Source: a virus | DNA: 64,000 bases | Strand: one strand, 5' to 3' | IMG/VR virus record: IMGVR_UViG_3300020577_010320 | Shown here: piece by piece, positions 5-25,900 of the stretch | Position numbering within the stretch: the stretch's first letter is position 1 | How the letters are laid out: every line of letters begins with the position of its first letter | The notes under the pieces: model-generated | What the model was told of the DNA's origin: nothing | Database searches by the model: none | Seen by the model: only the letters and a program-made list of their open reading frames with translations | Program-made: the position numbers and the translations under genes

Positions 5-219
5 TCACCCCTCCCCGTCGTAAGTGAACAGCTCGTTACACCCGCGGTCCGCCGCCATACGATTGATTAAGTCGTCCGGCAGGAGTCTGTACAGTGTCGG
101 GGGTATGTTGACGCCGATCGGCTTCAGGGTGATCCAACCGTAAACTCGGTCGCCGATGTTGAACCACACCGCCACACTACGGCCACAGTAAAACTGCCGG
201 TGATATCTGACGAACACGT
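5..219 (-). CDS. tandem-array small protein, LPG...ELFxYDEEG-tail family
   Basis: ends ...NELFTYDGEG*; GTG/ATG start immediately after upstream stop. Confidence 0.6.
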
Positions 220-503
220 CAGCCCTCCTCGTCGAAAACGAACAGGTCATCGTCGTGGAACACGTCCGCGCCGTTGACGTAGAACTGGCCGTACGTGTCG
301 CCGGGTAGGAGCCTAGACACAGCGAACCACGACTCGTCTGGATCCTCCTTGACGTCCCCGTCACACCCGAAGTCGCGGTACGGCACGTCGTCGACAACGT
401 AGCCGTGCTGGTTGTGTAACACGCGGGCGACGCAGACCAGACTCAGGTCTTGATAGTTGTCCCGCGACCGCCGCACGCCCTTGAAGTGAACAGTACCGAT
501 CAT
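219..503 (-). CDS. tandem-array small protein, LPG...ELFxYDEEG-tail family
   Basis: ends ...LFVFDEEG*; ATG overlaps upstream TGA (GAGGAGGGGTGATGA). Confidence 0.65.
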   Translation of the reverse strand: MIGTVHFKGVRRSRDNYQDLSLVCVARVLHNQHGYVVDDVPYRDFGCDGDVKEDPDESWFAVSRLLPGDTYGQFYVNGADVFHDDDLFVFDEEG

Positions 504-735
504 CACCCCTCCTCGTCGAAAACGAACAGGTAATCGCTCCACGACCCGAAAAGCGTCCCGGACCCGTCTTGGGCGTCCCCCGGCAGGTGCACGATTAGGC
601 GGTTATACGCCTCCGCGTTCCTCAGATTGCTCCCGGGCGGGCGGGTTCGGATGAACTGATCGCCCGAATCGCCGTACACCACGACTACACCGTAGATAGC
701 CCTAGAGCGTCGTACTAGTAGAGTTCGCCCCACGT
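503..735 (-). CDS. tandem-array small protein, LPG...ELFxYDEEG-tail family
   Basis: ends ...YLFVFDEEG*; start overlaps upstream stop. Confidence 0.6.
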
Positions 736-962
736 CAGCCCTCCTCATCGAGGGTGAACAGATCGCCAGGGTCGCTCGGCAGATCCCACCACAAGAAATG
801 CATTTGGCGGTTACGGTAGTAGTCGAACCGCGGATGGCTGTACTGAACCTCCAGCTCCCGGTCCTCGTCGTCACACGGCTGGCACTGGAGGTCCCTGACC
901 GTCGAGACGCGGATGACGTCCTGCGTCCGCTCCACGTGATACACGCGCCACACGTCGGTCAT
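735..962 (-). CDS. tandem-array small protein, LPG...ELFxYDEEG-tail family
   Basis: ends ...WWDLPSDPGDLFTLDEEG*; 75 aa from MTDVW. Confidence 0.65.
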   Translation of the reverse strand: MTDVWRVYHVERTQDVIRVSTVRDLQCQPCDDEDRELEVQYSHPRFDYYRNRQMHFLWWDLPSDPGDLFTLDEEG

Positions 963-1207
963 CACCCATCCTCGTCGAACTCGAACAGTGTGTTGTGTGG
1001 ATAGGTTACGGCTCCGGGCAAGGAGTTCCACACCCTCCTGTCTGAGCGGGTCCGGCCGCACTCGCTCACCCGTCCGGTCGGGACCACTATCACTTCGAAC
1101 CGACCCTCCCACCCATCGTACGTCGTATGGAGCACAGTCTGACCGCACAGGCAGAGCGCTGACAGCAGTTGTCGCTTAACGCAGAATAGTGACACGTTGG
1201 TACGCAC
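962..1207 (-). CDS. tandem-array small protein, LPG...ELFxYDEEG-tail family
   Basis: ends ...WNSLPGAVTYPHNTLFEFDEDG*; TGAGTG junction. Confidence 0.6.
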   Translation of the reverse strand: MRTNVSLFCVKRQLLSALCLCGQTVLHTTYDGWEGRFEVIVVPTGRVSECGRTRSDRRVWNSLPGAVTYPHNTLFEFDEDG

Positions 1208-1453
1208 TCACCCCTCCTTGTCTAGAGTAAAGAGTTCATCGTCGTACGCCTGTCGCCACCTGTACAACCAGCCGCCGGGCAGGAGCTGCCACACGCGGGC
1301 GAGTTCGGGGTCGACCCACGAAATGGAACAGTCGACGTTACAACGCCAACCTCGCAGATGGGTGTCCACTAAGGCCGCCGGCGGGTGGCTGTTTTCCACG
1401 AAGTGCGCGCTGACGCACCGTCCGAACCGACGCATGTGTGAGGTTACACTCAC
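1208..1453 (-). CDS. tandem-array small protein, LPG...ELFxYDEEG-tail family
   Basis: ends ...WQLLPGGWLYRWRQAYDDELFTLDKEG*. Confidence 0.6.
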   Translation of the reverse strand: MSVTSHMRRFGRCVSAHFVENSHPPAALVDTHLRGWRCNVDCSISWVDPELARVWQLLPGGWLYRWRQAYDDELFTLDKEG

Positions 1454-1454
1454 T

Positions 1455-1745
1455 TCACCCCTCCTCGTCGAAGACGAATAGCTCGTTACACTTCCGCGTC
1501 TCTACCTCACACCCACCGGGTAGGTTCAGCCACACGTGTCGCTGCTGACCGGCCTGGTCGCGGTACCGCAGCCAGAACGACCAGACGACGACGCACGGGT
1601 ACTCCCAGCCGGCGTGTACCCCCACCCCCTGGGGGACGTCGTGGTACCTGGAACTCTTGACGACGCTCAGCCGGACGCCGGGTTTGGACCGCCCCGGACC
1701 CCTACGGACGATGTGGGCCGCCCTGTGAACACTAACGTTCGACAC
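1455..1745 (-). CDS. tandem-array small protein, LPG...ELFxYDEEG-tail family
   Basis: ends ...WLNLPGGCEVETRKCNELFVFDEEG*. Confidence 0.6.
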   Translation of the reverse strand: MSNVSVHRAAHIVRRGPGRSKPGVRLSVVKSSRYHDVPQGVGVHAGWEYPCVVVWSFWLRYRDQAGQQRHVWLNLPGGCEVETRKCNELFVFDEEG

Positions 1746-1748
1746 CGA

Positions 1749-2072
1749 TCAGCCCTCCTCGTCGTAAGTGAACAGTTCATCGTCGACGTCTGTCGTCAAC
1801 ACGGACTGGTCTCGGAAGACCCCGCCGCCCGGTAGTAGGTGCCACACGTCGTACAATTGGGCGTCCACGAACACGTCGCGGCTGTAGATGGAGAACTCCG
1901 TCCAGTACAGCGTGACTATCGGGTCGAAACTACCGTCGACCGGTATGTAGTCCGAGAACACACACGCCGCGTCATGGCCGACCGTGATCTCGCGCGCCTG
2001 TTCCCAGCCGCGGTCGGTGCAGCTCTCCGCGTAGAAGTAGAACTGCAGCGAGGTGCGAAACACGTAGGGCAT
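1749..2072 (-). CDS. tandem-array small protein, LPG...ELFxYDEEG-tail family
   Basis: ends ...WHLLPGGGVFRDQSVLTTDVDDELFTYDEEG*; ATG 6 nt after upstream TGA, SD GAGGAGGGG. Confidence 0.65.
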   Translation of the reverse strand: MPYVFRTSLQFYFYAESCTDRGWEQAREITVGHDAACVFSDYIPVDGSFDPIVTLYWTEFSIYSRDVFVDAQLYDVWHLLPGGGVFRDQSVLTTDVDDELFTYDEEG

Positions 2073-2077
2073 CGACG

Positions 2078-2398
2078 TCACCCCTCCTCGTCGAGGACGA
2101 ACAACTCGTCGAAGGGTCCCTCGCATTGTGAGTCCGAGTCGCAGCCTCCCGGCAGAAGAGCCCAAACCCGGCACAGCTCGGCGCAAACGAAGTCGCCAGT
2201 CCGAACGACGAGATACCGCTTCACCATCGCACACGCTCCGTAGGCGCAGACCTCGCGGTACATAGTACCGTAACGCCAGAACCCCTCTACGATGTCGTGC
2301 GGATAGTGCAGTTCTGCGTCAGGGTAGGCGAAAGGCGCCATCTCATTGTAGTAGCACCAACAGTCGACGTCGGATCGACCGACCGTACAGCAGGTCAT
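2078..2398 (-). CDS. tandem-array small protein, LPG...ELFxYDEEG-tail family
   Basis: ends ...WALLPGGCDSDSQCEGPFDELFVLDEEG*; GTGATGA junction. Confidence 0.65.
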   Translation of the reverse strand: MTCCTVGRSDVDCWCYYNEMAPFAYPDAELHYPHDIVEGFWRYGTMYREVCAYGACAMVKRYLVVRTGDFVCAELCRVWALLPGGCDSDSQCEGPFDELFVLDEEG

Positions 2399-2649
2399 CA
2401 CCCCTCCTCGTCATAGACAAACAATTCCCCGCGCATGGATCCACGACACATCCGAGGCAGCAGGTTGAGCAGTACACCGGTCGGCGAAGAGCGAAACTCC
2501 TTACGCACACACTCCTGGCTCGAAAGGGGTAAATACACGAGGTGATCGCTCGTCGCCATGTGAATGCGAGTCGTCTGGCCGAACTTTTTGTAGCAGACGT
2601 AGACTCCGATCGAGAACCGTCCCCGGCCCAAGTCGAACGGCTTATTCAT
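2398..2649 (-). CDS. tandem-array small protein, LPG...ELFxYDEEG-tail family
   Basis: ends ...LNLLPRMCRGSMRGELFVYDEEG*. Confidence 0.6.
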   Translation of the reverse strand: MNKPFDLGRGRFSIGVYVCYKKFGQTTRIHMATSDHLVYLPLSSQECVRKEFRSSPTGVLLNLLPRMCRGSMRGELFVYDEEG

Positions 2650-2858
2650 CACCCCTCCTCGTCGTGAACGTAAAGGTCGGCGTACCCAGGCATCAAGCGC
2701 CACATGACGTGGTCGGCGAGTCTGTTGAGTGACACGTCGATTACATACGCTACGCACCGCGTGTCTGGCGGGCACTCACCGGCGACGGAGTCTATAACGC
2801 CACCACGGTGCCCCCGTGTGTGGACGAATCTGATCAAGACGTGGTAACGCACGGTCAC
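2649..2858 (-). CDS. tandem-array small protein, LPG...ELFxYDEEG-tail family
   Basis: ends ...WRLMPGYADLYVHDEEG*. Confidence 0.6.
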   Translation of the reverse strand: MTVRYHVLIRFVHTRGHRGGVIDSVAGECPPDTRCVAYVIDVSLNRLADHVMWRLMPGYADLYVHDEEG

Positions 2859-3145
2859 CCCTCCTCGTCGAACACGAACAACTCTCGGAGCGTGTCCCGG
2901 TCCCAGTTCGGCCTAACGCCGCCTGGCAGGTTCAGCCACACGCGTTGGTCGTCTGGGTACACGCACTGCAGCGTAGTAAGTATTTGGGGCTCGCAGTCGA
3001 TAGATGCGTCCGGGTGACGGTGTACAGCCCAGTAGATCGGTTCAACGGGTATCGTCGATGCGAACGCCGCAACCTCGACGTAGTCCGGGGTGACTACGAT
3101 TACTCGTCGCATATAACGGCGGAGTAGGTAGTTGTACACGGTCAC
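2855..3145 (-). CDS. tandem-array small protein, LPG...ELFxYDEEG-tail family
   Basis: ends ...WLNLPGGVRPNWDRDTLRELFVFDEEG*. Confidence 0.6.
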   Translation of the reverse strand: MTVYNYLLRRYMRRVIVVTPDYVEVAAFASTIPVEPIYWAVHRHPDASIDCEPQILTTLQCVYPDDQRVWLNLPGGVRPNWDRDTLRELFVFDEEG

Positions 3146-3396
3146 CCCTCCTCGTCGTGGATGTACAACTCGTTCTCGTACACACCGTGCCGGCGAACGC
3201 CTGCAGCACCTGGCAGCTTCGCGTACCACCCCACCGGCGTTTGGGGTGTACCGAGGAAGCGGTTGATGTGCGTCTTGATGAGACGCCTCCCGTGTGCGTA
3301 CGTCCAAAACGCACCCAGCTCATATGCGTCTACGTGGATCACGTCCGTGTAGTATTCGCGCGAGGGGCCCCGGCTCACGACGAGCATCAGCTTCAT
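3142..3396 (-). CDS. tandem-array small protein, LPG...ELFxYDEEG-tail family
   Basis: ends ...WYAKLPGAAGVRRHGVYENELYIHDEEG*; ATGA overlap with upstream non-family gene. Confidence 0.6.
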   Translation of the reverse strand: MKLMLVVSRGPSREYYTDVIHVDAYELGAFWTYAHGRRLIKTHINRFLGTPQTPVGWYAKLPGAAGVRRHGVYENELYIHDEEG

Positions 3397-3650
3397 ACAT
3401 CCTCCAGGTCGACGCCGTCCCACAGCTCCTTGACGTCCACCGAGAACACCCCGGAGACGCCGGTGATCGCAGCCACGTGCGCCATGTCCGCCCGCCCGTG
3501 AACCAGCCCGCAGTCCAGCACCTCGTCGACCGTCATGCCGGCCTTCGTCAGGCGGCTCACGACGCCGGCCATCTTCTCCCGCATGAACGCCGCCTCTACG
3601 AGTACGCGGACGTCCTTGACGTCCCCCGACGCCTTACGCTTCTTCGCCAC
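3393..3650 (-). CDS. hypothetical small protein (non-family insert in array)
   Basis: 85-aa ORF; GTG start with AGGAG 6 nt upstream; no DEEG tail. Confidence 0.5.
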   Translation of the reverse strand: MAKKRKASGDVKDVRVLVEAAFMREKMAGVVSRLTKAGMTVDEVLDCGLVHGRADMAHVAAITGVSGVFSVDVKELWDGVDLEDV

Positions 3651-3660
3651 GGCGACTCCT

Positions 3661-3690
3661 AAAAAGAAAAACCGTCCCGGAGGACGGTGT
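3661..3690 (-). terminator. rho-independent terminator (minus strand)
   Basis: ACCGTCC-tccg-GGACGGT hairpin followed by TTTTTCTTTTT on minus strand, directly after 3729..3947. Confidence 0.6.
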
Positions 3691-3728
3691 GTTCTGCCGC
3701 AACCATAATGACAGTTTGGGGCCGCGTG

Positions 3729-3947
3729 TTAAACGACCCGCACGTACCTACCCCTACGCCCGTCCCAGCACTCGCGGGTGATCGTCAAGCTGGCCCCGCC
3801 CTTGACCAGCCGTCTGAGCAACTCCTCGGCGTCAGCCTTGGACGCCTGCGCCTCGCCGTTGGCGGGGAATCGGTAATCGGCCCCGGTACGGTCCTTGCCG
3901 TGGACGACCCACCGGTCCGGTAGGCTCACCTCGTTGTGCTTAGCCAT
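3729..3947 (-). CDS. hypothetical small protein (non-family insert)
   Basis: 72-aa ORF MAKHNEVSLPDRW...; followed by terminator. Confidence 0.5.
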   Translation of the reverse strand: MAKHNEVSLPDRWVVHGKDRTGADYRFPANGEAQASKADAEELLRRLVKGGASLTITRECWDGRRGRYVRVV

Positions 3948-3950: not shown

Positions 3951-4168
3951 TCACCCTTCTTCGTCCCATTCGAACAGTGTGAACCCGGTCGGCATTTTCA
4001 GCCACACGGCGGTCCACTCCCACTGACGCCTGCCGCCGTCGATTATGGTTATGCGGTTCGTACGGTTGCAGTACAGCGGGCGTTCTAGACTACACCAGTA
4101 CCCGTCCACACTCGCCGAGATCGAGTGCGGGGTGTTCGGGTACTCTACGTGCCAGAGCCGCGTCAAGT
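3951..4168 (-). CDS. tandem-array small protein, LPG...ELFxYDEEG-tail family
   Basis: ends ...WLKMPTGFTLFEWDEEG*. Confidence 0.55.
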
Positions 4169-4371
4169 CAACCCTCCTCGTCCAATACGAACAGCTCACC
4201 GGGGCGTTCTGGACTCCACCCGGGAAGACGGTACCACAAGTGTTGGTCGAAGTACTTCGCTGTGCGGAAATTGAACCCCACAGTAAGGGCCACGTGACTG
4301 TCCTGCACGCACGACGGGCGCGACGCCCGCAACTCAAACGCGCACCAGTACCGCTCGATATTGCAAAACAT
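4168..4371 (-). CDS. tandem-array small protein, LPG...ELFxYDEEG-tail family
   Basis: 67 aa MFCNIERYW...WYRLPGWSPERPGELFVLDEEG*; length matches overlap-start. Confidence 0.65.
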   Translation of the reverse strand: MFCNIERYWCAFELRASRPSCVQDSHVALTVGFNFRTAKYFDQHLWYRLPGWSPERPGELFVLDEEG

Positions 4372-4595
4372 CACCCCTCCGCGTCCCAAGTGAACAGGTC
4401 GCCGTAGTTTGGCAGGCTGGTCCACACGACCACCCAGGACTGAACCCAGGATCCTTCGATAATACTCCTACGGAATACGTCTAACGCGTCCAAGTCACGA
4501 AACACTACCGGCACCGGTGAAGTGTACGGTTTGGGGATGAACGCGCACCACCCGACGTGGTAGGCGTTGTAAAACTTGATTAGGCGGCTACACAC
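4371..4595 (-). CDS. tandem-array small protein, LPG...ELFxYDEEG-tail family
   Basis: ends ...WTSLPNYGDLFTWDAEG*. Confidence 0.6.
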   Translation of the reverse strand: MCSRLIKFYNAYHVGWCAFIPKPYTSPVPVVFRDLDALDVFRRSIIEGSWVQSWVVVWTSLPNYGDLFTWDAEG

Positions 4596-4598
4596 GGT

Positions 4599-4790
4599 TC
4601 AGCCATCCTCGTCCAATACGAACAACTCACTAATCCACCGCTTCGTCCACCCTGGTAGTGAGCGCCACAAGAGCTGGTCGTTCGCGTTCGAATTCAGGTA
4701 GCGAAAGTCAAGTCCAACAACGTCAAAACAGTGACCGTTGCGGTCCGCCAGGGGGCAACAATCGCAGTTCCGTGACATGTAACACACCAT
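4599..4790 (-). CDS. tandem-array small protein, LPG...ELFxYDEEG-tail family
   Basis: 63 aa MVCYMS...WRSLPGWTKRWISELFVLDEDG*. Confidence 0.65.
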   Translation of the reverse strand: MVCYMSRNCDCCPLADRNGHCFDVVGLDFRYLNSNANDQLLWRSLPGWTKRWISELFVLDEDG

Positions 4791-5047
4791 CACCCCTCCC
4801 AGTCGTAAACGAACAGTTCCGCCTCGTCCCCCCATCGGTCGAGGTAGTCGAACCCGCTGCCGCCGGGGAGAGACGTCCATACGCGCAAGAACTCACCCGG
4901 ATGGGCCCACTCTCCGCCCACGACCGTAGTACGGAGGCGACCGTAAAACCCCGTCGGGAGGAGTGTCACTTCGTGCACCAGAGCCACATACCAGTTACCC
5001 ACGTCGGGCGTGTAGTGGCGCTCCACGTATTCGAAGACGCGGGCCAT
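4790..5047 (-). CDS. tandem-array small protein, LPG...ELFxYDEEG-tail family
   Basis: ends ...WTSLPGGSGFDYLDRWGDEAELFVYDWEG*. Confidence 0.6.
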   Translation of the reverse strand: MARVFEYVERHYTPDVGNWYVALVHEVTLLPTGFYGRLRTTVVGGEWAHPGEFLRVWTSLPGGSGFDYLDRWGDEAELFVYDWEG

Positions 5048-5286
5048 CACCCTTCCTCATCGAGTACGAACAGTTCCCGTAAGTCTCTGAACCCAGGCAG
5101 GTTCCAATACAAGTCGTCAGTCCAACCGTCGTCGTCGAATCTACAGTTAGCCACAGACTCGAGGCTGACGAGAAACGTTATCGGCTGCGAGTGTCCGAAC
5201 GCGGACACCCGGAACAACACGCCCACATTTGCGTACCCGCCGGCGCAACGGCGTAAGTCCTCCACTACGGCTGGGAGCAGAGTCAT
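5047..5286 (-). CDS. tandem-array small protein, LPG...ELFxYDEEG-tail family
   Basis: ends ...WNLPGFRDLRELFVLDEEG*. Confidence 0.6.
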   Translation of the reverse strand: MTLLPAVVEDLRRCAGGYANVGVLFRVSAFGHSQPITFLVSLESVANCRFDDDGWTDDLYWNLPGFRDLRELFVLDEEG

Positions 5287-5588
5287 CATCCCTCCTCATC
5301 GAGTACGAACAAAGAAGCGTGTTGCGGCGAACAGGCGACGCCGCCCGGCAGCATGTGCCACAACTTCGTGTCTTCATACGCCTCCGCCGGCTCGGATAAA
5401 TCCTCCGAGAGAAGCCCTTTGGGAGTCACCACCCTGCGCCACCCGACGTAGCCCGAACTGCGGACCACTCTGTACACCCCGGCGCCTCGCGCCAGCGGGC
5501 ACGTCGTCACGACCAGGTGCCACTCGTACCACGCCGGGTTCGGTCTGTCGACGGCGACGTGACGGTAGTCGTAGGGCCACTGCACCAC
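5286..5588 (-). CDS. tandem-array small protein, LPG...ELFxYDEEG-tail family
   Basis: ends ...WHMLPGGVACSPQHASLFVLDEEG*. Confidence 0.6.
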   Translation of the reverse strand: MVQWPYDYRHVAVDRPNPAWYEWHLVVTTCPLARGAGVYRVVRSSGYVGWRRVVTPKGLLSEDLSEPAEAYEDTKLWHMLPGGVACSPQHASLFVLDEEG

Positions 5589-5819
5589 TCACCCCTCCTC
5601 GTCGTAAGTGAACAACTCGTCAGGGCGGGACGGGCGCCAACCCGGTAACGCCCGCCACAAACGATGCGACTCCGGACTCCAACCCGCACGACCCTCGTCG
5701 CTGCGATCGAGCGCGGCGACGACGCCGCCCAGGACAATGACGTCCTCCATGTCAATGCGGTGCCCGTCGGCCCGGTAGACGTACCAATGCGACGAGCCGC
5801 GTTCCATACGTTTGACCAT
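5589..5819 (-). CDS. tandem-array small protein, LPG...ELFxYDEEG-tail family
   Basis: ends ...WRALPGWRPSRPDELFTYDEEG*. Confidence 0.6.
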   Translation of the reverse strand: MVKRMERGSSHWYVYRADGHRIDMEDVIVLGGVVAALDRSDEGRAGWSPESHRLWRALPGWRPSRPDELFTYDEEG

Positions 5820-6019
5820 CACCCCTCCGCGTCGAAGACGAACAGCTCGTCCAGGGCGTCAAAACTCCAACCCGGTAACAGCGACCACAGCTCGCCCCGG
5901 GTTGCGGTATAACCCCACCGGACGTGCGGCGGGAAGATGATGAGGGCGAACCTGGAATCATCGAACGAATCGATCAGGCGAACCGAACGCATCGTTCGTT
6001 CCATGTAGTACGGGGTCAT
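5819..6019 (-). CDS. tandem-array small protein, LPG...ELFxYDEEG-tail family
   Basis: ends ...WSLLPGWSFDALDELFVFDAEG*. Confidence 0.6.
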   Translation of the reverse strand: MTPYYMERTMRSVRLIDSFDDSRFALIIFPPHVRWGYTATRGELWSLLPGWSFDALDELFVFDAEG

Positions 6020-6216
6020 CACCCCTCCCCGTCGAACTGATACAACTCCGCATAGTTCGGCATCGAGTCCCACACGTTACTAGCCGTGTACCTCTCCGTG
6101 TACACACTCAACGTCCGCCCGCGGTGCGGGACGTCGCCGTTGTACGCCGTGACCAAGATGATCCGCCCGCCGGCGTCGCTGCGGCGGGCGGTGCAAACGA
6201 GCTCCGTCGTAACCAT
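6019..6216 (-). CDS. tandem-array small protein, LPG...ELFxYDEEG-tail family
   Basis: ends ...WDSMPNYAELYQFDGEG*. Confidence 0.55.
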   Translation of the reverse strand: MVTTELVCTARRSDAGGRIILVTAYNGDVPHRGRTLSVYTERYTASNVWDSMPNYAELYQFDGEG

Positions 6217-6410
6217 CACCCCTCCTCGTCGCAAATGAACAAGTCACTAAGAGGATACAGACGCCAACCCGGTAAAAGCGACCACAGCACCTTATCTCTG
6301 GAGTACGCGTCCATGAGAGACGGGTACTGACGCCTGACCGAATCGACGCGTCCACACTGGTAACAGCACACCACGTAACCGTCACGCTCACGCGTCATGT
6401 ACTGTAGCAT
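6216..6410 (-). CDS. tandem-array small protein, LPG...ELFxYDEEG-tail family
   Basis: ends ...WSLLPGWRLYPLSDLFICDEEG*. Confidence 0.6.
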   Translation of the reverse strand: MLQYMTRERDGYVVCCYQCGRVDSVRRQYPSLMDAYSRDKVLWSLLPGWRLYPLSDLFICDEEG

Positions 6411-6619
6411 CACCCCTCCCCATCGAACACGAACAACTCGTCACAAGTTCCACCACCTCGGTTGTAGTCGCCCGGCAGGTTTTCCCACCAGACGGGGTAG
6501 TCCGGCAAGTGCGGGTAATACACTACGTCGACCTCCGCCAAACCCACGTACAACTCGACGCGCGGGGATGCTGACACGGAAACGTCGTAACACCTAACAA
6601 GGTCTTTGAATTGTCGCAT
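6410..6619 (-). CDS. tandem-array small protein, LPG...ELFxYDEEG-tail family
   Basis: ends ...WENLPGDYNRGGGTCDELFVFDGEG*. Confidence 0.6.
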   Translation of the reverse strand: MRQFKDLVRCYDVSVSASPRVELYVGLAEVDVVYYPHLPDYPVWWENLPGDYNRGGGTCDELFVFDGEG

Positions 6620-6831
6620 CACCCCTCCTCGTCGTAGGTGTACAGCGACTGGGCGTCGGGCAGAAGACACATCACGCCGCCCACGTCCAACAGTTTTTCG
6701 TTCGGCGCCCACACGACCATCACATCCCCGACCCTACGCCGCCAGTCGCAGTCGCTAATACGCACGACCCAGCCGGACCACCCCATCAACAAGGAGTCCA
6801 GGACCAACTCGCGCTGCAGGCTATACGTCAT
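6619..6831 (-). CDS. tandem-array small protein, LPG...ELFxYDEEG-tail family
   Basis: ends ...LLPDAQSLYTYDEEG*; TAATG overlap with HAD gene stop. Confidence 0.55.
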   Translation of the reverse strand: MTYSLQRELVLDSLLMGWSGWVVRISDCDWRRRVGDVMVVWAPNEKLLDVGGVMCLLPDAQSLYTYDEEG

Positions 6832-11288: not shown

Positions 11289-11294
11289 ACGCGG

Positions 11295-12703: not shown

Positions 12704-12719
12704 GTCAACCTCCTTGTGG

Positions 12720-19154: not shown

Positions 19155-19381
19155 CACCCCTCCCTGTCGAACAAGAATAACGACGCATCCCCGCCCGAGT
19201 CGTGTACCCCGCCGGGGAGGCGCTCCCATATGCGTTGTAACTCCATCAGGCATCCCACAGGGACCACGCCGCGCTTGTCGCAATGGATGTACAGGTTGTG
19301 GCGCACCCTGATCCACTTTCGACCCAACGGGTTATAGCCGCGGCTGCGACTTAAACGCACGGACGCCGTGTACGACATCAC
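19154..19381 (-). CDS. tandem-array small protein, LPG...ELFxYDEEG-tail family
   Basis: ends ...WERLPGGVHDSGGDASLFLFDREG*. Confidence 0.55.
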   Translation of the reverse strand: MMSYTASVRLSRSRGYNPLGRKWIRVRHNLYIHCDKRGVVPVGCLMELQRIWERLPGGVHDSGGDASLFLFDREG

Positions 19382-19554
19382 CCCTCCTCGTCGTAGGTGA
19401 ACAGTTCCTCATCCGGGTGCTTCCAGCCCGCATACCGCCCCGGGAGTTTGATGCCAATGTGGGCCCCGACGATGTTAATGATCGCGATCAGACTCTCGTC
19501 AACGGGGCGGACCAAGTACGCCCACATCAAAACGCGACGCATCCGGAAGGACAT
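19378..19554 (-). CDS. tandem-array small protein, LPG...ELFxYDEEG-tail family (first of block D)
   Basis: ends ...IKLPGRYAGWKHPDEELFTYDEEG*; ATG 19554 with GAGG 5 nt upstream. Confidence 0.55.
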   Translation of the reverse strand: MSFRMRRVLMWAYLVRPVDESLIAIINIVGAHIGIKLPGRYAGWKHPDEELFTYDEEG

Positions 19555-19564
19555 GCTCACCTCA

Positions 19565-19597
19565 GTAAGAAAAGCGGCGGCCCGAGAGGACCGCCGC
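19565..19597 (-). terminator. rho-independent terminator (minus strand)
   Basis: GCGGCGG-loop-CCGCCGC hairpin followed by TTTTCTT on minus strand, just after Thg1-like stop. Confidence 0.55.
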
Positions 19598-19610: not shown

Positions 19611-20438
19611 CTATGCGCCGACCAGATCGGCCTTGAGCACCGGGTCCTCGCCCTTGAGGAGGACGCCGACCCGGTTCGCGATTGAGTGGAGCTTGGGCAG
19701 GTTCAGCACCTGCACCTTGCTCCGCGTCACCAGCAGGTTGGGGTCCCGGCGGGCGGCGTGCTTCGACGGCAACGCCAGCAGCTCCGCCGCGTTGTACTTC
19801 TCAGTCACGGACCGCACCCCGACGTACGTGCCACGCTTGAAGAACGCGGGGTAGTCGTTCCAGTTGACGCCCATCTGGTGGAGCATCTCCTGCATCTGCG
19901 CGCCGTTCTTGCCCAGCATCTCCGACGGCCGGTAGTACACCCGCGTCGCGCTGGAGATGCTGTTCTTGGTCGCGTCCTGCTCCCGCCACAGGAACGTGTT
20001 GGCGGCCTCGTCGACGTTCGGGACGTTCCACACCCGACAGTCGAAGAACGCCGTCTTGTCCGCCTTCTCGGGGACGAACTCGGCCAGTCGCCGGTTGAAC
20101 TCCCCGGTCAGGAACGACGACAGCAGCGACGTCGTCTTCTGCACCCGTCCGGCGAACTGGGGGACGTTGGTGCGGTTGTCCAAGGTGTACCAGCACAGCG
20201 AGATCTCGTCGCTCTGCGTGTACCCCACGTTAGCGTTGAACGTCTTGACGAGCAGCTTGGTGCAGCAGACCATCAGGTCGTGCAGCCGCTCGTCGTACGG
20301 CTTCTCCAGACCGGCCGTGAACTTCGAGAAGCCCCACCCGTCCAGGCGGGCCATGACCGGAATCCGCGGCGTCATCAGCCGGCGGTCGGCCATCTGCTCG
20401 TACGACTTCATCCGGTCGCCCAGGTCGTCCTTCTGCAT
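19611..20438 (-). CDS. Thg1-like 3'-5' nucleotidyltransferase (tRNA-His guanylyltransferase family / TLP)
   Basis: VMARLDGWGFSKF ... YTQSDEISLCW ... FDCRVW ... GVNWNDYPAFFKRGTYV align with Thg1 RLDGRNFHRF / GQSDEYSFVF / FDGRVV / INYNNELPMYRKGT; start trimmed to MQKDDLGDRMKSYEQ with GGGAGGA SD. Confidence 0.8.
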   Translation of the reverse strand: MQKDDLGDRMKSYEQMADRRLMTPRIPVMARLDGWGFSKFTAGLEKPYDERLHDLMVCCTKLLVKTFNANVGYTQSDEISLCWYTLDNRTNVPQFAGRVQKTTSLLSSFLTGEFNRRLAEFVPEKADKTAFFDCRVWNVPNVDEAANTFLWREQDATKNSISSATRVYYRPSEMLGKNGAQMQEMLHQMGVNWNDYPAFFKRGTYVGVRSVTEKYNAAELLALPSKHAARRDPNLLVTRSKVQVLNLPKLHSIANRVGVLLKGEDPVLKADLVGA

Positions 20439-20458
20439 GTCGGTCCTCCCAGGGTGGA

Positions 20459-20725
20459 TCACTTCTTCAGCCGCTCGATCTCCATCCAGCCGTCGTACCA
20501 CGCGTGGCGGTAAATCGACGATTCGTCGGCGTACGGGTTGGCCGCCGCCGACACGTTGTTGAACCGGGCCGCCATGCCCTCCCGCTTCACGTCCGCGACC
20601 GTGTGGGCGTTCTGTGCGTTAATGTAGATAATCGTGATCAGGGTCGTGAGCACGAGGCCGCCGAACAGGACCAGAACGCAAGTCCCCAAGACGCGGCCGA
20701 CGCGCTCCCAGCGTACGCGGTCCAT
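20459..20725 (-). CDS. small membrane protein
   Basis: 88 aa, TM segment GTCVLVLFGGLVLTTLITIIYI. Confidence 0.45.
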   Translation of the reverse strand: MDRVRWERVGRVLGTCVLVLFGGLVLTTLITIIYINAQNAHTVADVKREGMAARFNNVSAAANPYADESSIYRHAWYDGWMEIERLKK

Positions 20726-21603: not shown

Positions 21604-21825
21604 TCACCCCTCCTCGTCTTGCACGAACAACGCCGTGTGGTCCGGCAACCGCACGTACCACATGTTGAAATAGTCAGAATTACTTGACGCGTGGTTGTCG
21701 TCCCACCCCGGATACTGTACAGCGCTCATCAATGATGTTGCGTCGATTTCGACGTAGAACTCGCCAGCCTTGAAGCCCTTGTGCTCGCTAGGATCGCACA
21801 TACGCCGAAGCCTGGTAACCACTGT
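21604..21825 (-). CDS. tandem-array small protein, LPG...ELFxYDEEG-tail family
   Basis: ends ...WYVRLPDHTALFVQDEEG*. Confidence 0.55.
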   Translation of the reverse strand, partial: TVVTRLRRMCDPSEHKGFKAGEFYVEIDATSLMSAVQYPGWDDNHASSNSDYFNMWYVRLPDHTALFVQDEEG

Positions 21826-22250
21826 CAGCCCTCCTCGTCCAGGACGAACAACTCGGCTTGGCCTTTGTTGCCGGGCAACGCCGACCAGACGGCGAGGGAC
21901 TGCGAGTCGGCCGTCCACCCGTTCGACGGCCCGAACCGCCGCAGCCGCGTCGGGAACACGCCTAAATACCGAATGTGACAACTGCAGTGATTGGGGTCAC
22001 GCCAGTCGGGCACGTCGCAGTGGTCTCCCAGTCGACCCACCACCTCGACGACGATCGCCGGCGCGTAACTCACACGACCTATGTTGACCCGGAACGGGTT
22101 GTCCGGCCCCAGAGACACGTGCGCGTTGAGACGCAGCCGTCGAACCGCGCGTGTGGCGCACGGGCACGCCTCGTCGAGCAGGCCGGCGTACCGGTCAAAC
22201 GTCGTCGCCCAGACCCAGAGGTCCTTCAACCAGGTTAGTAATCGCATCAC
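21825..22250 (-). CDS. tandem-array small protein, LPG...ELFxYDEEG-tail family
   Basis: 141 aa, ends ...WSALPGNKGQAELFVLDEEG*. Confidence 0.6.
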   Translation of the reverse strand: MMRLLTWLKDLWVWATTFDRYAGLLDEACPCATRAVRRLRLNAHVSLGPDNPFRVNIGRVSYAPAIVVEVVGRLGDHCDVPDWRDPNHCSCHIRYLGVFPTRLRRFGPSNGWTADSQSLAVWSALPGNKGQAELFVLDEEG

Positions 22251-22477
22251 CCCTCCTCGTCGTACGTGTAGAGTTCGTCGTCGACGTCGGCTTCCCAGTA
22301 TGCGCCGGGTAGATTACGGTAGAAGTCCGTCGGTTCTACACCTCTTAGCCTATCGAGCCGAACTTCAGAGTGACTCACGAGTGTAAGGCCGGTGCTGGTT
22401 ATGACGATGCGCATGTAAACCACGACGTTGTCGTCATTCCTGACAACACCACTCGTGTAGTACGTAGCGTGCATCAC
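22247..22477 (-). CDS. tandem-array small protein, LPG...ELFxYDEEG-tail family
   Basis: MMHATYYTSGVVRNDDNVVVYMRIVITSTGLTL...ELYTYDEEG*; near-duplicate of next gene. Confidence 0.65.
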   Translation of the reverse strand: MMHATYYTSGVVRNDDNVVVYMRIVITSTGLTLVSHSEVRLDRLRGVEPTDFYRNLPGAYWEADVDDELYTYDEEG

Positions 22478-22707
22478 CCCTCCTCGTCGTATGTGTAGAG
22501 TTCGTCTCTATCGGCACCGGACGCACGATACGCGCCGGGTAACCCACAGCAGACGTCCGGCGTTGCTACACCTCTTAGCCTCTGTAACCAAACGTCCACA
22601 CGACTCGAGAGTGTAAGGCCGGTGCTGGTTATGACGACGCGCATGTAAACCGTGACGCTGTCGTAATCTCTGACAACACCACTCGTGTAGTACGTAGCGT
22701 GCATCAC
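22474..22707 (-). CDS. tandem-array small protein, LPG...ELFxYDEEG-tail family
   Basis: MMHATYYTSGVVRDYDSVTVYMRVVITSTGLTL...ELYTYDEEG*; near-duplicate of previous. Confidence 0.65.
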   Translation of the reverse strand: MMHATYYTSGVVRDYDSVTVYMRVVITSTGLTLSSRVDVWLQRLRGVATPDVCCGLPGAYRASGADRDELYTYDEEG

Positions 22708-22910
22708 CCCTCCTCGTCGTACGCGAACAACTCAAACCTCCTATTCGGGTCCCAGCCGGGCAAGTCGAACCACGCGCGGTCGCTGCTCGATATCGCACTG
22801 TGTCTGCACGTGGCGATAACCGAGCCGAGTGCCGTGCCGAGTGCGTCGTGCAGATGCCACCGGCCGAACATCCGTTCTATCCGGTGTATCTTTACGTGTT
22901 CCACCGTCAC
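22704..22910 (-). CDS. tandem-array small protein, LPG...ELFxYDEEG-tail family
   Basis: ends ...WFDLPGWDPNRRFELFAYDEEG*. Confidence 0.6.
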   Translation of the reverse strand: MTVEHVKIHRIERMFGRWHLHDALGTALGSVIATCRHSAISSSDRAWFDLPGWDPNRRFELFAYDEEG

Positions 22911-23155
22911 CCCTCCTCATCGAACACGAACAACTCATCGACGTTAGCACCACCGGGTAGGTCGGCCCACGTGGTGTACCAGTCCGACAGCCGAGTCTCG
23001 TCCACCCGCCACCACCCCAGGGGGAGTACTGGGTGGAGGTGTCGCTTGTGAGGGATAAAGGCCGCAGACTGTCCGTGTAGCTGAATCTGGTAGTGTACGG
23101 TGACCGTGCCGCTAACTTCGCGCACGACACGAATCACATGGTACTCGGCCGTCAT
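22907..23155 (-). CDS. tandem-array small protein, LPG...ELFxYDEEG-tail family
   Basis: ends ...WADLPGGANVDELFVFDEEG*. Confidence 0.6.
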   Translation of the reverse strand: MTAEYHVIRVVREVSGTVTVHYQIQLHGQSAAFIPHKRHLHPVLPLGWWRVDETRLSDWYTTWADLPGGANVDELFVFDEEG

Positions 23156-23383
23156 TCACCCCTCCGGATCTGGAACGAACAGCTCTAGCGTCCGGTCGAA
23201 CCCCGGACTGTAATACGCCCCACCAGGCAACTTAGACCAGACCCCCCACCGGCTGGTCCGTGCACGATGTATGAGGGTGCTGTACTGTTTTTCGTCGCCG
23301 ATGGGGTGGACGACCATCGTCCAGGTCACGTCGACGCCGTAGTCGCCGCGGTACATGCGGCTTAACGTGAACGTCGCAGTCAT
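23156..23383 (-). CDS. tandem-array small protein, LPG...ELFxYDEEG-tail family
   Basis: ends ...WSKLPGGAYYSPGFDRTLELFVPDPEG*. Confidence 0.55.
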   Translation of the reverse strand: MTATFTLSRMYRGDYGVDVTWTMVVHPIGDEKQYSTLIHRARTSRWGVWSKLPGGAYYSPGFDRTLELFVPDPEG

Positions 23384-23578
23384 TCATCCCTCCTCGTCGT
23401 AGACGAACAATTCATCAAGTTTATTCGGCACCCACCCGGGAAGGAGCCTCCACGTCGAGTCACCACGACAAGGATTCACACCGAAGGCGGTGCAGCCGTC
23501 GATGCACCCGAGACGGTAACCATCGGCGTTTTCCAATCGCCAGACAGCGTGCAATCGCTCGATCGTGCGGAGCATCAC
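23384..23578 (-). CDS. tandem-array small protein, LPG...ELFxYDEEG-tail family
   Basis: ends ...WRLLPGWVPNKLDELFVYDEEG*. Confidence 0.6.
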   Translation of the reverse strand: MMLRTIERLHAVWRLENADGYRLGCIDGCTAFGVNPCRGDSTWRLLPGWVPNKLDELFVYDEEG

Positions 23579-23781
23579 CCCTCCTCATCGTAGACGAATA
23601 GAGTGGACGGCCCCGGCAACCAGTACCAGACACGGTCCGGCTCCCCTATTATAGGGTCCATCAGGAGGCGAAATTCGTTGACCACTGAGTTTACGGCGAC
23701 CGCCACAGTCACGACGCAGTAGCCGGGCCCACGTGTCACTCGTATCACGCGGTGTGAGATGAGCATTAGCGGCCTCAACAC
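23575..23781 (-). CDS. tandem-array small protein, LPG...ELFxYDEEG-tail family
   Basis: ends ...WYWLPGPSTLFVYDEEG*. Confidence 0.6.
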   Translation of the reverse strand: MLRPLMLISHRVIRVTRGPGYCVVTVAVAVNSVVNEFRLLMDPIIGEPDRVWYWLPGPSTLFVYDEEG

Positions 23782-24005
23782 GGGTTAAGGATCTCCGAGA
23801 ACTGTCCGTCAGCCCGGCGGATGAAGACTGTGCCGCCGGCCGTGACCTGTTGGTCGAGATACTGGGCGAACTCCACGAGGCGGTGGAGTTCGGTCGTCAC
23901 AGACGTGTCGGTCAGCACCGCCCGCGCCTCGATCTTCCGGAGCGTGTCGGCCCGGACCATCACAGTCAACTTGACCAGGTCTTCAAGCGGTTCGGCCACG
24001 GTCAT
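23775..24005 (-). CDS. hypothetical small protein (non-family insert)
   Basis: 76 aa MTVAEPLEDLVKL...; ATGA overlap with upstream family gene stop. Confidence 0.45.
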   Translation of the reverse strand: MTVAEPLEDLVKLTVMVRADTLRKIEARAVLTDTSVTTELHRLVEFAQYLDQQVTAGGTVFIRRADGQFSEILNPC

Positions 24006-24208
24006 CCCTCCTCGTCTAAGGTGAACAGGCTGCCGAAGTCGGGCATTTTGTTGAACCACACGTCGTACAGGTCCCGGACCCGGGGGTAGCTCGGGGTCGG
24101 CTCGTTCAGCCTGGTGAACGCGATCAGGGCCGACGGCAGGCGAGGATACCAGAACACCTCCACCACCAGCGCGTTGCCGCCGCGCTTTCGCCACACTGAC
24201 GCAGTCAT
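24002..24208 (-). CDS. tandem-array small protein, LPG...ELFxYDEEG-tail family
   Basis: ends ...WFNKMPDFGSLFTLDEEG*. Confidence 0.6.
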   Translation of the reverse strand: MTASVWRKRGGNALVVEVFWYPRLPSALIAFTRLNEPTPSYPRVRDLYDVWFNKMPDFGSLFTLDEEG

Positions 24209-24436
24209 TCACCCCTCCTCGTCTAAAGTGAACAACTCGGTCATGTCCGGTAGGGCTTTCCACAAGAGAATCATCGTGGCGTCTGACTCATTCGCCACGG
24301 ACGACTCGTAGAACTCGATGTCTTTTCTCCACCGGCGTAGTATTACTATCCGGCGGTAGAGACCGTCACAGCCGTCCGCGTACCCGTAGTCGCGTGTCAT
24401 GTGTACGCCGTCCCAGCTAGGTGCGGACACTGTCAC
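24209..24436 (-). CDS. tandem-array small protein, LPG...ELFxYDEEG-tail family
   Basis: ends ...WKALPDMTELFTLDEEG*. Confidence 0.6.
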   Translation of the reverse strand: MTVSAPSWDGVHMTRDYGYADGCDGLYRRIVILRRWRKDIEFYESSVANESDATMILLWKALPDMTELFTLDEEG

Positions 24437-24654
24437 CCCTCCTGGTCGTGTACGTACAGGTCACGCTCGTCTGGTAACGACCCCCACAGGTCCCTCATCC
24501 GCCAATCCGGGTCCTGAACGGTCAGATGCGGGAACACAAAGTCTCGGTTGGGGCCGACCGCCCAACAAACAGTGTAAACGACGTTGAATCCGTACCCGAC
24601 GTAAGACCGGTCGCGCCAAAGCGTTACGCCGCTGTGCTCGTTAGGTGACGCCAT
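24433..24654 (-). CDS. tandem-array small protein, LPG...ELFxYDEEG-tail family
   Basis: ends ...WGSLPDERDLYVHDQEG*. Confidence 0.6.
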   Translation of the reverse strand: MASPNEHSGVTLWRDRSYVGYGFNVVYTVCWAVGPNRDFVFPHLTVQDPDWRMRDLWGSLPDERDLYVHDQEG

Positions 24655-24901
24655 CACCCCTCCTTGTCGTGGACGAACAGTTCGTCGCCGTTCGGTAACA
24701 TCTCTTGAAACCACCACTGACATAGCTGAAGCATACCGGGTGACGCGTCGTTGCTCGACCACGTGCAGAATTTCACCAGGTTGTCAGTCCAGGCGCGGTC
24801 CGGGTCGGTGTATCGGCACACGATCCGGTACTGTCCGCACGATCCGGCGTCGTCGAAGAACCCTTCGTCGCGGTACATGCTCCAGCTCGTAAACCACACG
24901 T
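24654..24901 (-). CDS. tandem-array small protein, LPG...ELFxYDEEG-tail family
   Basis: ends ...FQEMLPNGDELFVHDKEG*. Confidence 0.55.
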
Positions 24902-25146
24902 CACCCCTCCCGGTCGAGTTTGAACGCGTCGCCCCCGCTCGGCAATAAGCGGAACACTCTGAACGTCTCCCAGACTTTGACCGCCCCACGCCGGTGTAAG
25001 TCGTCCAAGTGGTGGAATCGCATGGTGCTGTGACGCTTGCCGTACCGCACTACGGCCGTGTACTTGAGCATCCCTTCGGACTTAACAGTCTCGGTTGTTA
25101 CTCCGTACCACATGCGCCGGACGCTCTGCGTTCGAGACACGGTCAC
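24901..25146 (-). CDS. tandem-array small protein, degenerate tail
   Basis: ends ...FRLLPSGGDAFKLDREG*. Confidence 0.5.
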   Translation of the reverse strand: MTVSRTQSVRRMWYGVTTETVKSEGMLKYTAVVRYGKRHSTMRFHHLDDLHRRGAVKVWETFRVFRLLPSGGDAFKLDREG

Positions 25147-25412
25147 CCCTCTTCATCGTGAACGAACAGGCCGACGTCGCCAGGCAGAGACAACCACACC
25201 CGCCGGAGCTCCCACACCGCCAGCGTCGGCTTGACGCGAGAAGCGTAAAGATGAGGAAACCCGACGGACGCACAGAGACCGAAGCCCCGACCTGCAGCTT
25301 GATGTAAGCTGACGTCGAATGCGAACGGCCCGCGGCCTTGTATCGCGGTTCGGTTGAAGCGGCGGTAGAACCCGGACAGACCGCGTCTTAGCCTTATAAT
25401 ATGACACGACAT
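25143..25412 (-). CDS. tandem-array small protein, LPG...ELFxYDEEG-tail family
   Basis: ends ...WLSLPGDVGLFVHDEEG*. Confidence 0.6.
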   Translation of the reverse strand: MSCHIIRLRRGLSGFYRRFNRTAIQGRGPFAFDVSLHQAAGRGFGLCASVGFPHLYASRVKPTLAVWELRRVWLSLPGDVGLFVHDEEG

Positions 25413-25415
25413 GGG

Positions 25416-25646
25416 TCACCCCTCCCCGTCCCAGACGAACAGAGTTTTGCCGTTCGGCAGTTTGTTGATGTAGGCGTCGTGCGTCAGCAACCGGAATCTG
25501 TGCCTCCGGCCGCCCTCGTACATCGTCCCGAACCGGGAGAACGCGACGAACGCTGGTGCGGGGCCGTTCGCGAAGTCGTCGATCACGAGGACCCGAAACT
25601 CATACAGGTCACGCTCACGCGCCATGAGGTAGATCACGGCGGTCAC
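25416..25646 (-). CDS. tandem-array small protein, LPG...ELFxYDEEG-tail family
   Basis: ends ...YINKLPNGKTLFVWDGEG*. Confidence 0.6.
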   Translation of the reverse strand: MTAVIYLMARERDLYEFRVLVIDDFANGPAPAFVAFSRFGTMYEGGRRHRFRLLTHDAYINKLPNGKTLFVWDGEG

Positions 25647-25845
25647 CCCTCCTCATCGTAGGTGAACAGGTCGTCGAAGTTGGGCAGCTCGTCGAACAAG
25701 TAGCCGCGGGGGGCTTTCGTCAGGCCGCCGTTTGCGTACGGTAGTGGTGTGACGCGGACACACCACACACAACCCCAACCAGTCATAACGCCGGGCCAGC
25801 TACCGAACCAGAACCGATTCGGCCGCAATCCTAAGTGGGCGGTCA
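25643..25845 (-). CDS. tandem-array small protein, LPG...ELFxYDEEG-tail family (first of block E)
   Basis: MTAHLGLRPNRFWFG...LFDELPNFDDLFTYDEEG*; start ATG 25845 preceded by vestigial unit-end CTGTTCATACGAGGAGGGTCGGTATGA. Confidence 0.6.
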
Positions 25846-25869
25846 TACCGACCCTCCTCGTATGAACAG

Positions 25870-25900
25870 CTAAAAACAACCCGAGCCGTAGGCGCTCGGG
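25870..25900 (-). terminator. rho-independent terminator (minus strand) downstream of tRNA
   Basis: CCCGAGC-gcctacg-GCTCGGG hairpin followed by TTGTTTTTAGCT on minus strand. Confidence 0.55.

Follow-up and report, generated by a model that had tools for sequence, protein, structure and literature searches.

We describe here a family of very small proteins encoded in tandem arrays on a stretch of viral DNA, IMG/VR record IMGVR_UViG_3300020577_010320, whose genes end in a way that seems to carry two messages at once. The window, by which we mean the whole stretch of 64,000 nucleotides (nt) that was analysed, comes from a source contig of 76,963 nt and is treated as part of an uncultivated high-GC jumbo-type phage; its GC content is ~62%, and nearly all of its genes are carried by the minus strand, on which every feature given by coordinates below is located. 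Each family gene closes with a short conserved tail, in its canonical form GAC GAG GAG GGG TGA, which encodes a C-terminal D-E-E-G peptide. We consider it likely that this tail doubles as a Shine-Dalgarno (SD) and start module for the gene that follows, and that the genes are translated by SD-assisted termination-reinitiation along polycistronic blocks.

The small-protein family

Family members were collected by scanning the open reading frames (ORFs) of the window, on both strands, for the peptide pattern [LVAI][FY]..D.[ED]G followed by a stop codon. There were 75 matches on the minus strand, between positions 5 and 29669, and none on the plus strand; a preliminary description of the DNA had placed the array at 219-25870, where it does lie, but its true span is wider. 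At the DNA level, GACGAGGAGGGGTGA with at most two mismatches occurs 71 times, always on the minus strand, against 0.42 occurrences expected by chance. The proteins have a median length of 76 amino acids (aa; range 60-140), and their ORFs sum to 18.4 kb, or ~29% of the window. A member begins with a weakly conserved N-terminal beta region containing an Arg, continues through a variable middle to the motif W-x-x-L-P-(G), and ends in the tail, which gives the C-terminal consensus W-x-x-L-P-(G)...(E)-L-F/Y-x-x-D-E-E-G-TGA; in the alignment, conservation far from the tail is found at the N-terminal Arg, at a Tyr and at W-x-x-L-P-(G). Every member (75/75) ends in Gly, and the residue before it is Glu or Asp, not Gly.

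These ORFs are real genes under purifying selection. All 75 frames are open from junction to junction, the GC content at the three codon positions (GC1, GC2 and GC3) follows a coding-like pattern, gene callers run on independent assemblies predicted the same cistrons, and an ortholog pair between the window phage and a related contig (L020) has a ratio of nonsynonymous to synonymous substitution rates (dN/dS) of 0.25-0.33. A non-coding repeat array, whether CRISPR-like or made of protein-binding-site repeats, is ruled out, since every unit is an open frame that ends at the repeat; the coding-like GC pattern, the dN/dS of 0.25-0.33 and the occurrence of W..LP at a variable distance also contradict it. 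Only one pair of paralogs is young (22247/22474; 68% aa identity, dN/dS ~0.8). The others are mostly just 28-45% identical, so that synonymous sites among paralogs are effectively saturated and the codon statistics of the tail are therefore meaningful.

Geometry of the junctions

The stop codon is TGA in 75/75 family genes. TGATG is present at 41 of the 75 junctions (binomial p=1e-29) and RTGATG, which combines both types of stop/start overlap in one hexamer, at 40; a GTGA or ATGA overlap only is found at 23, and overlap is absent from 11. A potential RTGA and/or TGATG overlap thus exists at 64/75 junctions, and at 70/75 the first start that opens an ORF of at least 55 codons sits -1 to +6 from the stop, so that the claim of overlapping or closely following starts at most junctions holds once all of them are tabulated. 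From family gene to family gene the start offsets are +2 (38 junctions), +3 (6), +4 (8), +5 (9), +6 (3) and +8 (2), which by frame amounts to +2/+5/+8 at 49 junctions, +3/+6 at 9 and +4 at 8; the distance from the end of GGAGG to the start is 4 nt for a +2 ATG and 7 nt for a +5 GTG. Offsets between -1 and +8 occur, in each of the three frames, so that what matters is proximity and overlap is dispensable.

A canonical junction, GAC GAG GAG GGG TGA TG, can be read at 501-517, where GGAGG lies 4 nt upstream of an ATG whose A is also the last base of the TGA; the stop is overlapped in addition by an in-frame GTG (GTGA). The variant at 8981-8997, GAC GAG GAG GGA TGA TG, has a tandem ATG-ATG with both ATGA and TGATG overlaps. 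The junctions that had been cited as examples (near 503, and at 2069-2080, 8983-8986 and 24002-24005) were correct when re-read, and the 'RRGGVM' N-terminal extensions are, as had been recognised, the tail in the frame of the next gene (CGA CGA GGA GGG GTG ATG) in stop-to-stop ORFs.

Two layers of constraint in the tail

The tail is selected first as a peptide, its Leu, Pro and Asp residues being free to use different synonymous codons. For Leu(-8) the codons are CTG (32), TTG (24), CTC (10) and CTA (5); in the LP motif every synonym of both L and P is in use, in full mixture; and at Asp(-4) GAC and GAT stand in the proportion found in gene bodies.

A nucleotide-level SD constraint overlays this peptide selection. 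The terminal Gly is encoded by GGG in 51 genes, GGA in 12, GGC in 9 and GGT in 3, against 28/10/41/22% for the same codons in gene bodies (p=5e-14), which is to say that the share of GGG is 68% at the tail and 28% elsewhere in the genes. At Glu(-2,-3) the GAG:GAA ratio is 115:10, compared with 126:57 in gene bodies (p=6e-7) and 26:23 at Glu(-9) (p=3e-8). Position -3 admits G, K, A, Q, R, W, P and L besides Glu, and 24/25 of its non-Glu codons are NNG, where gene bodies would predict 35% (p=2e-10); its third base, the first G of GGAGG, is more conserved than the first two. The exclusive use of TGA sets the family apart from 18 long core genes, in which TAA, TGA and TAG are roughly equal (p=5e-9), and a Gly codon of the form GGR goes with TGATG (40/41, against 23/34 otherwise; p=8e-4). 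Conservation beyond the peptide is found only at -7, -4, -1, the TGA and +3/+4, third positions -25, -16 and -13 being free. A comparison of synonymous and non-synonymous variation, which had been proposed as a check, therefore does find nucleotide constraint beyond the peptide in the last codons. The suggestion that dual constraint explains the conservation of the tail holds for the third positions of the last three codons, the stop and +3/+4, but not for the rest, which is conserved at the protein level, at first and second codon positions.

SD strength at family and core-gene starts

Duplex energies were calculated against the canonical anti-SD, from which the 16S 3' end of the host may differ. 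With a core set of the 18 long genes, in which the first start codon of each ORF was taken as the start so that the contrast is approximate, family starts pair with a mean predicted energy of -11.9 kcal/mol and core-gene starts with one of -4.6, which is the level of random positions (-4.4), and values of -8.4 kcal/mol or below are found at 91%, 11% and 9% of these, respectively. The D-E-E-G codons are thus predicted to act as an SD for the next cistron, as had been claimed, with strong pairing at a working distance for 91% of starts. Only 6 GGAGG-plus-start combinations exist in 34 kb of core genes. The core genes (30000-64000) have a GC3 of 0.85-0.98 and mixed stops, and the family genes (5-29669) a GC3 of ~0.6-0.89. 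It appears that strong SDs are kept for the junctions of the arrays and a small number of block leaders, and outside reinitiation sites the phage or its host may be poor in SDs.

Natural controls and relatives

Tails that are directly followed by a start can be compared with those that are not. In an automated count GGAGG is present in 94/109 start-adjacent tails and in 4/10 non-adjacent ones (p=0.002), and GAG:GAA is 177:11 and 12:6, respectively (p=0.001). The automated adjacency call misplaces the tails at 17785 and 11546, where a TTG inside GGTTGA opens a spurious ORF, and correcting these two widens and strengthens the contrast. The tail at 11546-11560, GAT GAA GAA GGT TGA, keeps D-E-E-G with four non-SD synonyms and 0 non-synonymous changes; the gene after it has its own GGAGGA about 30 nt downstream and starts at about 35 nt. 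At 12701-12734, the tail GAC GAG GAC GGC TGA (DEDG, without GGAGG; 12720) is followed by a separate SD, AAGGAGGT, and the ATG (12703) of a non-family gene. The array-terminal tail GAC GAG GAC GGT TGA (17785-17799) has lost the SD core, and that at 7875 is another array-end tail without an SD in which D-E-E/D-G is retained.

An internal family tail is also tolerated within fused genes. The two-unit gene at 8340-8741 contains the internal tail ELFVWDEVDGG (GAC GAG GTA GAC GGC GGC), from which SD and stop are both absent, and ends in a normal terminal tail; a second two-unit gene, at 8983-9384, has the internal tail DLFVWDEVDGG (GAC GAG GTC GAC GGC GGC). These genes are paralogs, 37% identical, that have in common the internal junction ...LFVWDEVDGG..., and the fusion is therefore older than their duplication.

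Sixteen family members were found on the two loci examined (L003 and L004) of a distant relative, IMGVR_UViG_3300020577_005315. This phage keeps W..LP...LF..DEEG, with mixed Gly codons that include GGC and GGT and with TGA or TAA as the stop, and its starts lie 1-5 nt downstream of the stop, as in TGACCGTG and TGACGTG; its array ends read GAC GAA GAA GGC (L003) and GAC GAA GAG GGA (L004), and so keep the peptide without GGAGG. The D-E-E-G peptide is therefore primary and the use of an SD is common to the relatives, and the tight RTGATG overlap is a specialisation of the window phage and its close relatives L020-L024. Between two orthologous anchors (window 23298-24895) L020 has 3 array genes and the window 5-6, such gains and losses occurring at about 77-79% nucleotide divergence. 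Four other sequencing runs contain fragments 99.95-100% identical to the window phage, and the arrays are identical to the same degree across four samples of that phage. From the same samples, a contig of 8112 nt (L024; Logan SRR8942260) without a match to the window carries 12 further family members. The contig probably belongs elsewhere in the same genome or to a relative that co-occurs with the phage and, if so, the family totals about 90 or more members.

Blocks and block leaders

The family genes are arranged in tandem. A block of 13 at 5-3423, preceded by the non-family gene 3393-3650, runs past the left edge of the window (its extension is in L030), and a second block of 13, at 3951-6870, has a small non-family ORF on either side (6831-7052 and 3729-3947), joined to it by TAATG and 3-nt junctions. 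The chain at 7875-14106 comprises 21 family genes, in runs of 6, 3 and 12, bridged by the non-family genes 12188-12703 and ~11295-11549. Eight family genes lie at 17785-19560, the first of which has an SD of its own (GAGGTGA) and ATG 19554 as its most likely start, and block E (21604-25869) consists of a leader, 17 family genes and one non-family ORF (~23775-24005). Three family genes at 28957-29669, outside the range first described, have tails ending in GGC TGA with the next start 1 nt downstream or in TGATG. Uninterrupted runs contain 3, 8, 9, 8, 6, 3, 12, 13 and at least 13 family genes; when single bridging non-family ORFs are included (gaps of at most 16 nt), the chains reach ~18, 8, 23, 15 and at least 14 cistrons, and within the polycistronic layout gaps are at most 8 nt. 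Long chains had been reported and are seen, but at ~8-23 cistrons in the window the earlier figure of up to ~30 is somewhat high.

Strong hairpin-plus-T-run elements on the coding strand were found at block borders only. Terminator-like elements of this kind lie between the transfer RNA (tRNA) gene for Asn and the block E leader (25879-25901), directly upstream of the block that starts at 19554 (19574-19597, a strong example), and directly upstream of the AGGAG SD and GTG 3650 that open the last block (3671-3688). Sigma-70-like promoters are not above the chance level, and the gaps between the genes are too short to hold promoters. In three block leaders a GC-rich hairpin and a T-run are immediately followed by the SD and start of the first gene, which therefore leaves no promoter space between terminator and SD; the blocks may be read through from upstream, or promoters may be located before the hairpins.

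The leader of block E (25843-25869), CTGTTCATACGAGGAGGGTCGGTATGA with an SD and ATG (25846), resembles a shortened unit tail, and had been taken for the vestigial end of a unit that has lost its body. Written as CTGTTCA-TACGA-GGAGGG-TCGGT-ATG, it aligns to the tail consensus with two small gaps, and it is the only non-tail match in the window to [CT]T[GCA]T[TA]C-N3-12-GGAGGG, of which ~1 per strand is expected; given that an SD is needed there anyway, the conditional probability of such a resemblance is roughly 0.003-0.03. The string exists as described, but the case is single, the other block leaders (GAGGTGA-ATG at 19554 and AGGAG-GTG at 3650) having no tail remnant, and a vestigial origin is plausible, not established.

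A separate observation concerns a stretch of 132 nt just downstream of the last family gene of a block in both the window phage (7674-7805) and IMGVR_UViG_3300020577_005315 (L004 6274-6405), which is 100% identical between two phages whose proteins are otherwise only ~30% identical. Two strong hairpins lie within it, a (CTT)n/(AAG)n stem and GTGTCTTTTTCCT-CAAAGC-AGGAAAAAGACAC, and its fold z-score is -3.5; Rfam gave only sub-threshold noise, and no other viral contig carries the stretch. It could be a conserved terminator, a noncoding RNA, an ori/pac-type site or a mobile piece.

Alternative explanations and the case for reinitiation

It might be argued that the tail is a protein motif and nothing more, GGAGG and the starts being by-products of D-E-E-G in a compact, GC-rich genome. 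D-E-E-G is indeed conserved where no SD is needed, at array ends, in the fused genes and in the relative (L003/L004); GAG is already the commoner Glu codon (69% in gene bodies), and core genes seem to initiate without an SD. Such an account nevertheless strikes us as quite improbable, as it does not predict that GGG, a minority codon in gene bodies, should prevail at the tail, that Glu(-9), only six codons upstream, should have GAG and GAA in near balance, that the variable position -3 should keep G as its third base in all but one of 25 non-Glu codons, or that the codon bias should vanish without an adjacent start. Uniform tails could also result from concerted evolution and not from selection on the SD, if gene conversion or unequal crossover took place between the ~27-nt ends. 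Array content does differ between related phages (3 genes in L020 against 5-6 in the window), and there are a young duplicate pair (22247/22474) and two fused two-unit genes. Yet Leu(-8), the third positions of codons -5 and -6 and Glu(-9) are not homogenised, most paralogs have diverged to 28-45% identity, the arrays are so nearly identical across four independent samples that turnover is not fast, and the specific loss of SD-forming codons at array ends is left unexplained; we therefore think it improbable that recombination took the place of selection.

The conserved element of ~27 nt before every start might otherwise be a promoter for the RNA polymerase (RNAP) of the phage, which is multisubunit, with monocistronic messenger RNAs (mRNAs) and very short leaders as the outcome. 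A transcript starting downstream of the tail would be without an SD, however, and the relative keeps the peptide with different nucleotides. Conservation beyond the peptide is confined to SD, stop and start positions, and on this position-specific pattern the idea of a promoter for each gene was rejected as extremely unlikely. We give almost no credence to the view that GAG GGG TGA is a programmed frameshift or readthrough site, with an SD-like stimulator, that fuses units into polyproteins. At 54 junctions a ribosome that slipped by -1 on G GGG would find itself in the frame of the following GTG-ATG, and naturally fused two-unit genes exist, but nearly every unit has its own start at SD distance, the relatives use GGC/GGT and TAA with spacers and lack the G-run/TGA context, and the polyprotein idea was rejected because downstream frames vary, with starts in all three. 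SD-like sequences inside coding regions are familiar as the stimulators of +1 frameshifting in prfB and -1 frameshifting in dnaX, which the tails resemble in having a GGAGG-type element inside an ORF immediately before UGA. Unlike those sites, the junctions of the window have no constant downstream frame and a start codon is always present, and the arrangement therefore fits initiation, not recoding.

In the mechanism that we favour, GAC GAG GAG GGG TGA (TG) presents a strong SD, GAGGAGG, 4-9 nt ahead of the next start, and this start shares bases with the TGA (RTGA and/or TGATG) or sits 1-6 nt after it. A terminating ribosome would therefore be positioned on the SD and start of the next cistron. 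Termination-reinitiation assisted by the SD is the most likely outcome, possibly with some de novo SD-driven initiation, and would result in a relay of translation along polycistronic blocks of about 8-23 cistrons. Because tail, SD and start travel as one piece, tandem duplication or unequal crossover would yield a cistron that is already translatable, and this ready-made translatability probably eased the expansion of the family. The junction anatomy, the two layers of constraint, the strength of the SDs relative to other genes and the purifying selection on the proteins are shown by the data above; we infer that the blocks are single transcripts, that reinitiation itself takes place and that the module had a role in expansion.

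Several points weigh against this interpretation or soften it, beyond the approximate nature of the core-gene contrast. Because the paralogs are related by descent, the counts are only partly independent, and some of the uniformity of the tails could come from short-tract gene conversion. The predicted mRNA accessibility of SD and start at the junctions is at the mid-gene level and so indicates neither the sequestration of strict coupling nor the openness of free initiation, and gene bodies show no depletion of internal GGAGG (26 occurrences against an expectation of 27.6). At a modelled energy of about -12 kcal/mol, the SDs would be strong enough for de novo initiation. For these last reasons, strong SDs that could also drive de novo initiation and accessibility no different from mid-gene, the obligatory coupling claimed in the preliminary description cannot be inferred.

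Homology searches and the E1/JAB lead

Pfam, PHROGs, PADLOC and PDB sequences gave 0 matches to single members or to all 69 scanned individually, and tblastn of the family against deposited phages found nothing. Among 5.8 billion proteins a profile search matched nothing but the genes of the window itself, and an exhaustive HMMER search of 1.84 billion representative proteins found only the window phage and a few related short contigs. Scans with a degenerate DNA pattern produced 15 single matches among metagenome contigs, mostly due to chance (L006 and L009 being outside that verdict), 9 single matches among 185k species genomes that were judged to be chance, and, among viral contigs, one useful relative, IMGVR_UViG_3300020577_005315. 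A literature search on the tail motif and on tandem small-gene families of phages yielded nothing relevant. As far as these searches reach, the family is an orphan, confined to the window phage and a few relatives. In two AlphaFold2 models of low confidence (predicted local distance difference test, pLDDT, ~64) strands at the N terminus are followed by a short helix at W..LP, and the tail is disordered; a beta-grasp fold was not seen, although at a pLDDT of 64 its absence is not certain.

Small proteins with a flexible tail that ends in an invariant Gly, in a genome that encodes an E1-like and a JAB-like protein, bring to mind the prokaryotic ubiquitin-like/E1/JAB systems, such as ThiS/MoaD with ThiF/MoeB, and Cap2/Cap3 of the cyclic-oligonucleotide-based antiphage signaling system (CBASS). 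In the window, the gene for a ThiF/E1-like adenylyltransferase (41729-42487; Pfam E=1e-26, below all NCBIfam cut-offs) adjoins that of a 514-aa protein with a weak Prok-JAB match (42503-44047); homologs of the latter in L043 and L044 are encoded immediately upstream of ThiF and have the same weak match. It is tempting to see in the C-terminal Gly, which 75/75 members carry on a predicted disordered tail, the mark of substrates for this pair, either as ubiquitin-like modifiers or as adenylated peptides. We looked at the JAB-like partner in the window, L043 and L044, and at ThiF homologs in 50 viral loci: the loci with these pairs and homologs contain no family tails in 972 kb, no consistent small partner was seen at the 50 loci, and ThiF went undetected by the pattern scan on the family-bearing relative. 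The tails also end in E-G, without the Gly-Gly terminus of the known systems, the arrays are at least 12 kb from the pair, no co-occurrence was found elsewhere, and fused genes tolerate an internal tail; the models, though not decisive at pLDDT ~64, offer no beta-grasp prediction. Altogether this makes an E1-substrate role very unlikely.

Genomic context

Deposited phages have no nucleotide match to the window. Its fused beta/beta' multisubunit RNAP ORF (1457 aa; 59037-63410) contains Rpb2 domain 6, from beta, and Rpb1 domains 1-2, from an N-terminal part of beta', and is only ~28% identical to the corresponding proteins of Salmonella phage Arash and Vibrio phage D69; a separate ORF of 627 aa with Rpb1 domain 5 (55257-57140) is a further beta' fragment, and this split/fusion layout is unusual for a phage multisubunit RNAP. 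The window also encodes an SbcD-like exonuclease. A homolog of Thg1-like tRNA-His guanylyltransferase (19611-20462), located between two family blocks, and an RNA ligase (RNA_ligase and PHA02142 OB domain; 30314-31501) together suggest a toolkit for tRNA repair or editing. There are two tRNA genes, one for tRNA-Asn(GTT) that is unusually long at 85 nt and lies directly upstream of block E (25907-25991), and one for tRNA-Met(CAT) that adjoins the RNAP gene (58931-59000). A papain-family (C1) cysteine protease (35804-37276), a VWA-domain protein of 900 aa encoded just downstream of the block of three family genes (25999-28812) and an SPFH/Band-7 plus PspA-like pair (31577-33209) are uncommon cargo for a phage.

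Discussion

Translational coupling at overlapping stop and start codons has well-known examples in trpE-trpD and trpB-trpA. Overlapping ATGA and TGATG gene pairs with an intragenic SD were tightly coupled in 13 of 14 cases tested, with a contribution of the SD that ranged from none to essential, and in some lineages ('pattern 3') the SD serves chiefly in reinitiation (Huber et al., 2019; PMC6728339). Like those coupled pairs, the genes of the window are co-directional, overlap by -4 or -1 nt or are separated by spacers of a few nt, and have a strong SD in the 3' codons of the upstream gene; as in the 'pattern 3' lineages, the SD is found at internal junctions far more than at leading or core genes (PMC6728339). 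What differs is that the window phage repeats one junction ~70 times, within the conserved C-terminal peptide of one amplified family, that it often joins both overlap types in a single hexamer (RTGATG, 40/75), and that its chains of putatively coupled genes run to 15-23 cistrons where the known cases are gene pairs. The translation arrangement is thus already known, and it is the stereotyped repetition over long chains, together with a phage family this large, that is unusual.

Large paralog families are not foreign to big viruses, among them the ankyrin, F-box and MORN families of giant viruses and the inner-body proteins of phiKZ-like phages. The family described here is like these in having tens of divergent paralogs in tandem blocks, a conserved motif with variable regions and a narrow lineage; it is unlike them in the very small size of its proteins (median 76 aa), in its tightly abutting cistrons and in the lack of detectable homology to described families. 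A speculative reading, which we think doubtful, is that ~90 or more hypervariable small proteins make up a library with a common C-terminal 'handle' (LP...ELFxYDEEG-COOH), expressed by a dedicated SD-driven reinitiation relay, and that the handle docks to, or is activated by, a common partner, conceivably the JAB/E1-like pair of the phage. If this were true, the dual-coded tail would let the library grow by duplication of units, each new member being translated at once.

The arrays offer a clean natural case of two selective layers, a peptide motif and a ribosome-binding site, on the same nucleotides, with controls built in, namely the ends of the arrays, the fused genes and the relative whose junctions have another geometry. 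They are also a substrate for asking how far termination-reinitiation propagates along an mRNA of 15-23 cistrons, and could show whether a phage that is otherwise SD-poor reserves its strong SDs for reinitiation. The larger puzzle is why ~29% of 64 kb should be given to one orphan family of tiny proteins that is under purifying selection and stable across samples, and that nonetheless turns over between related phages.

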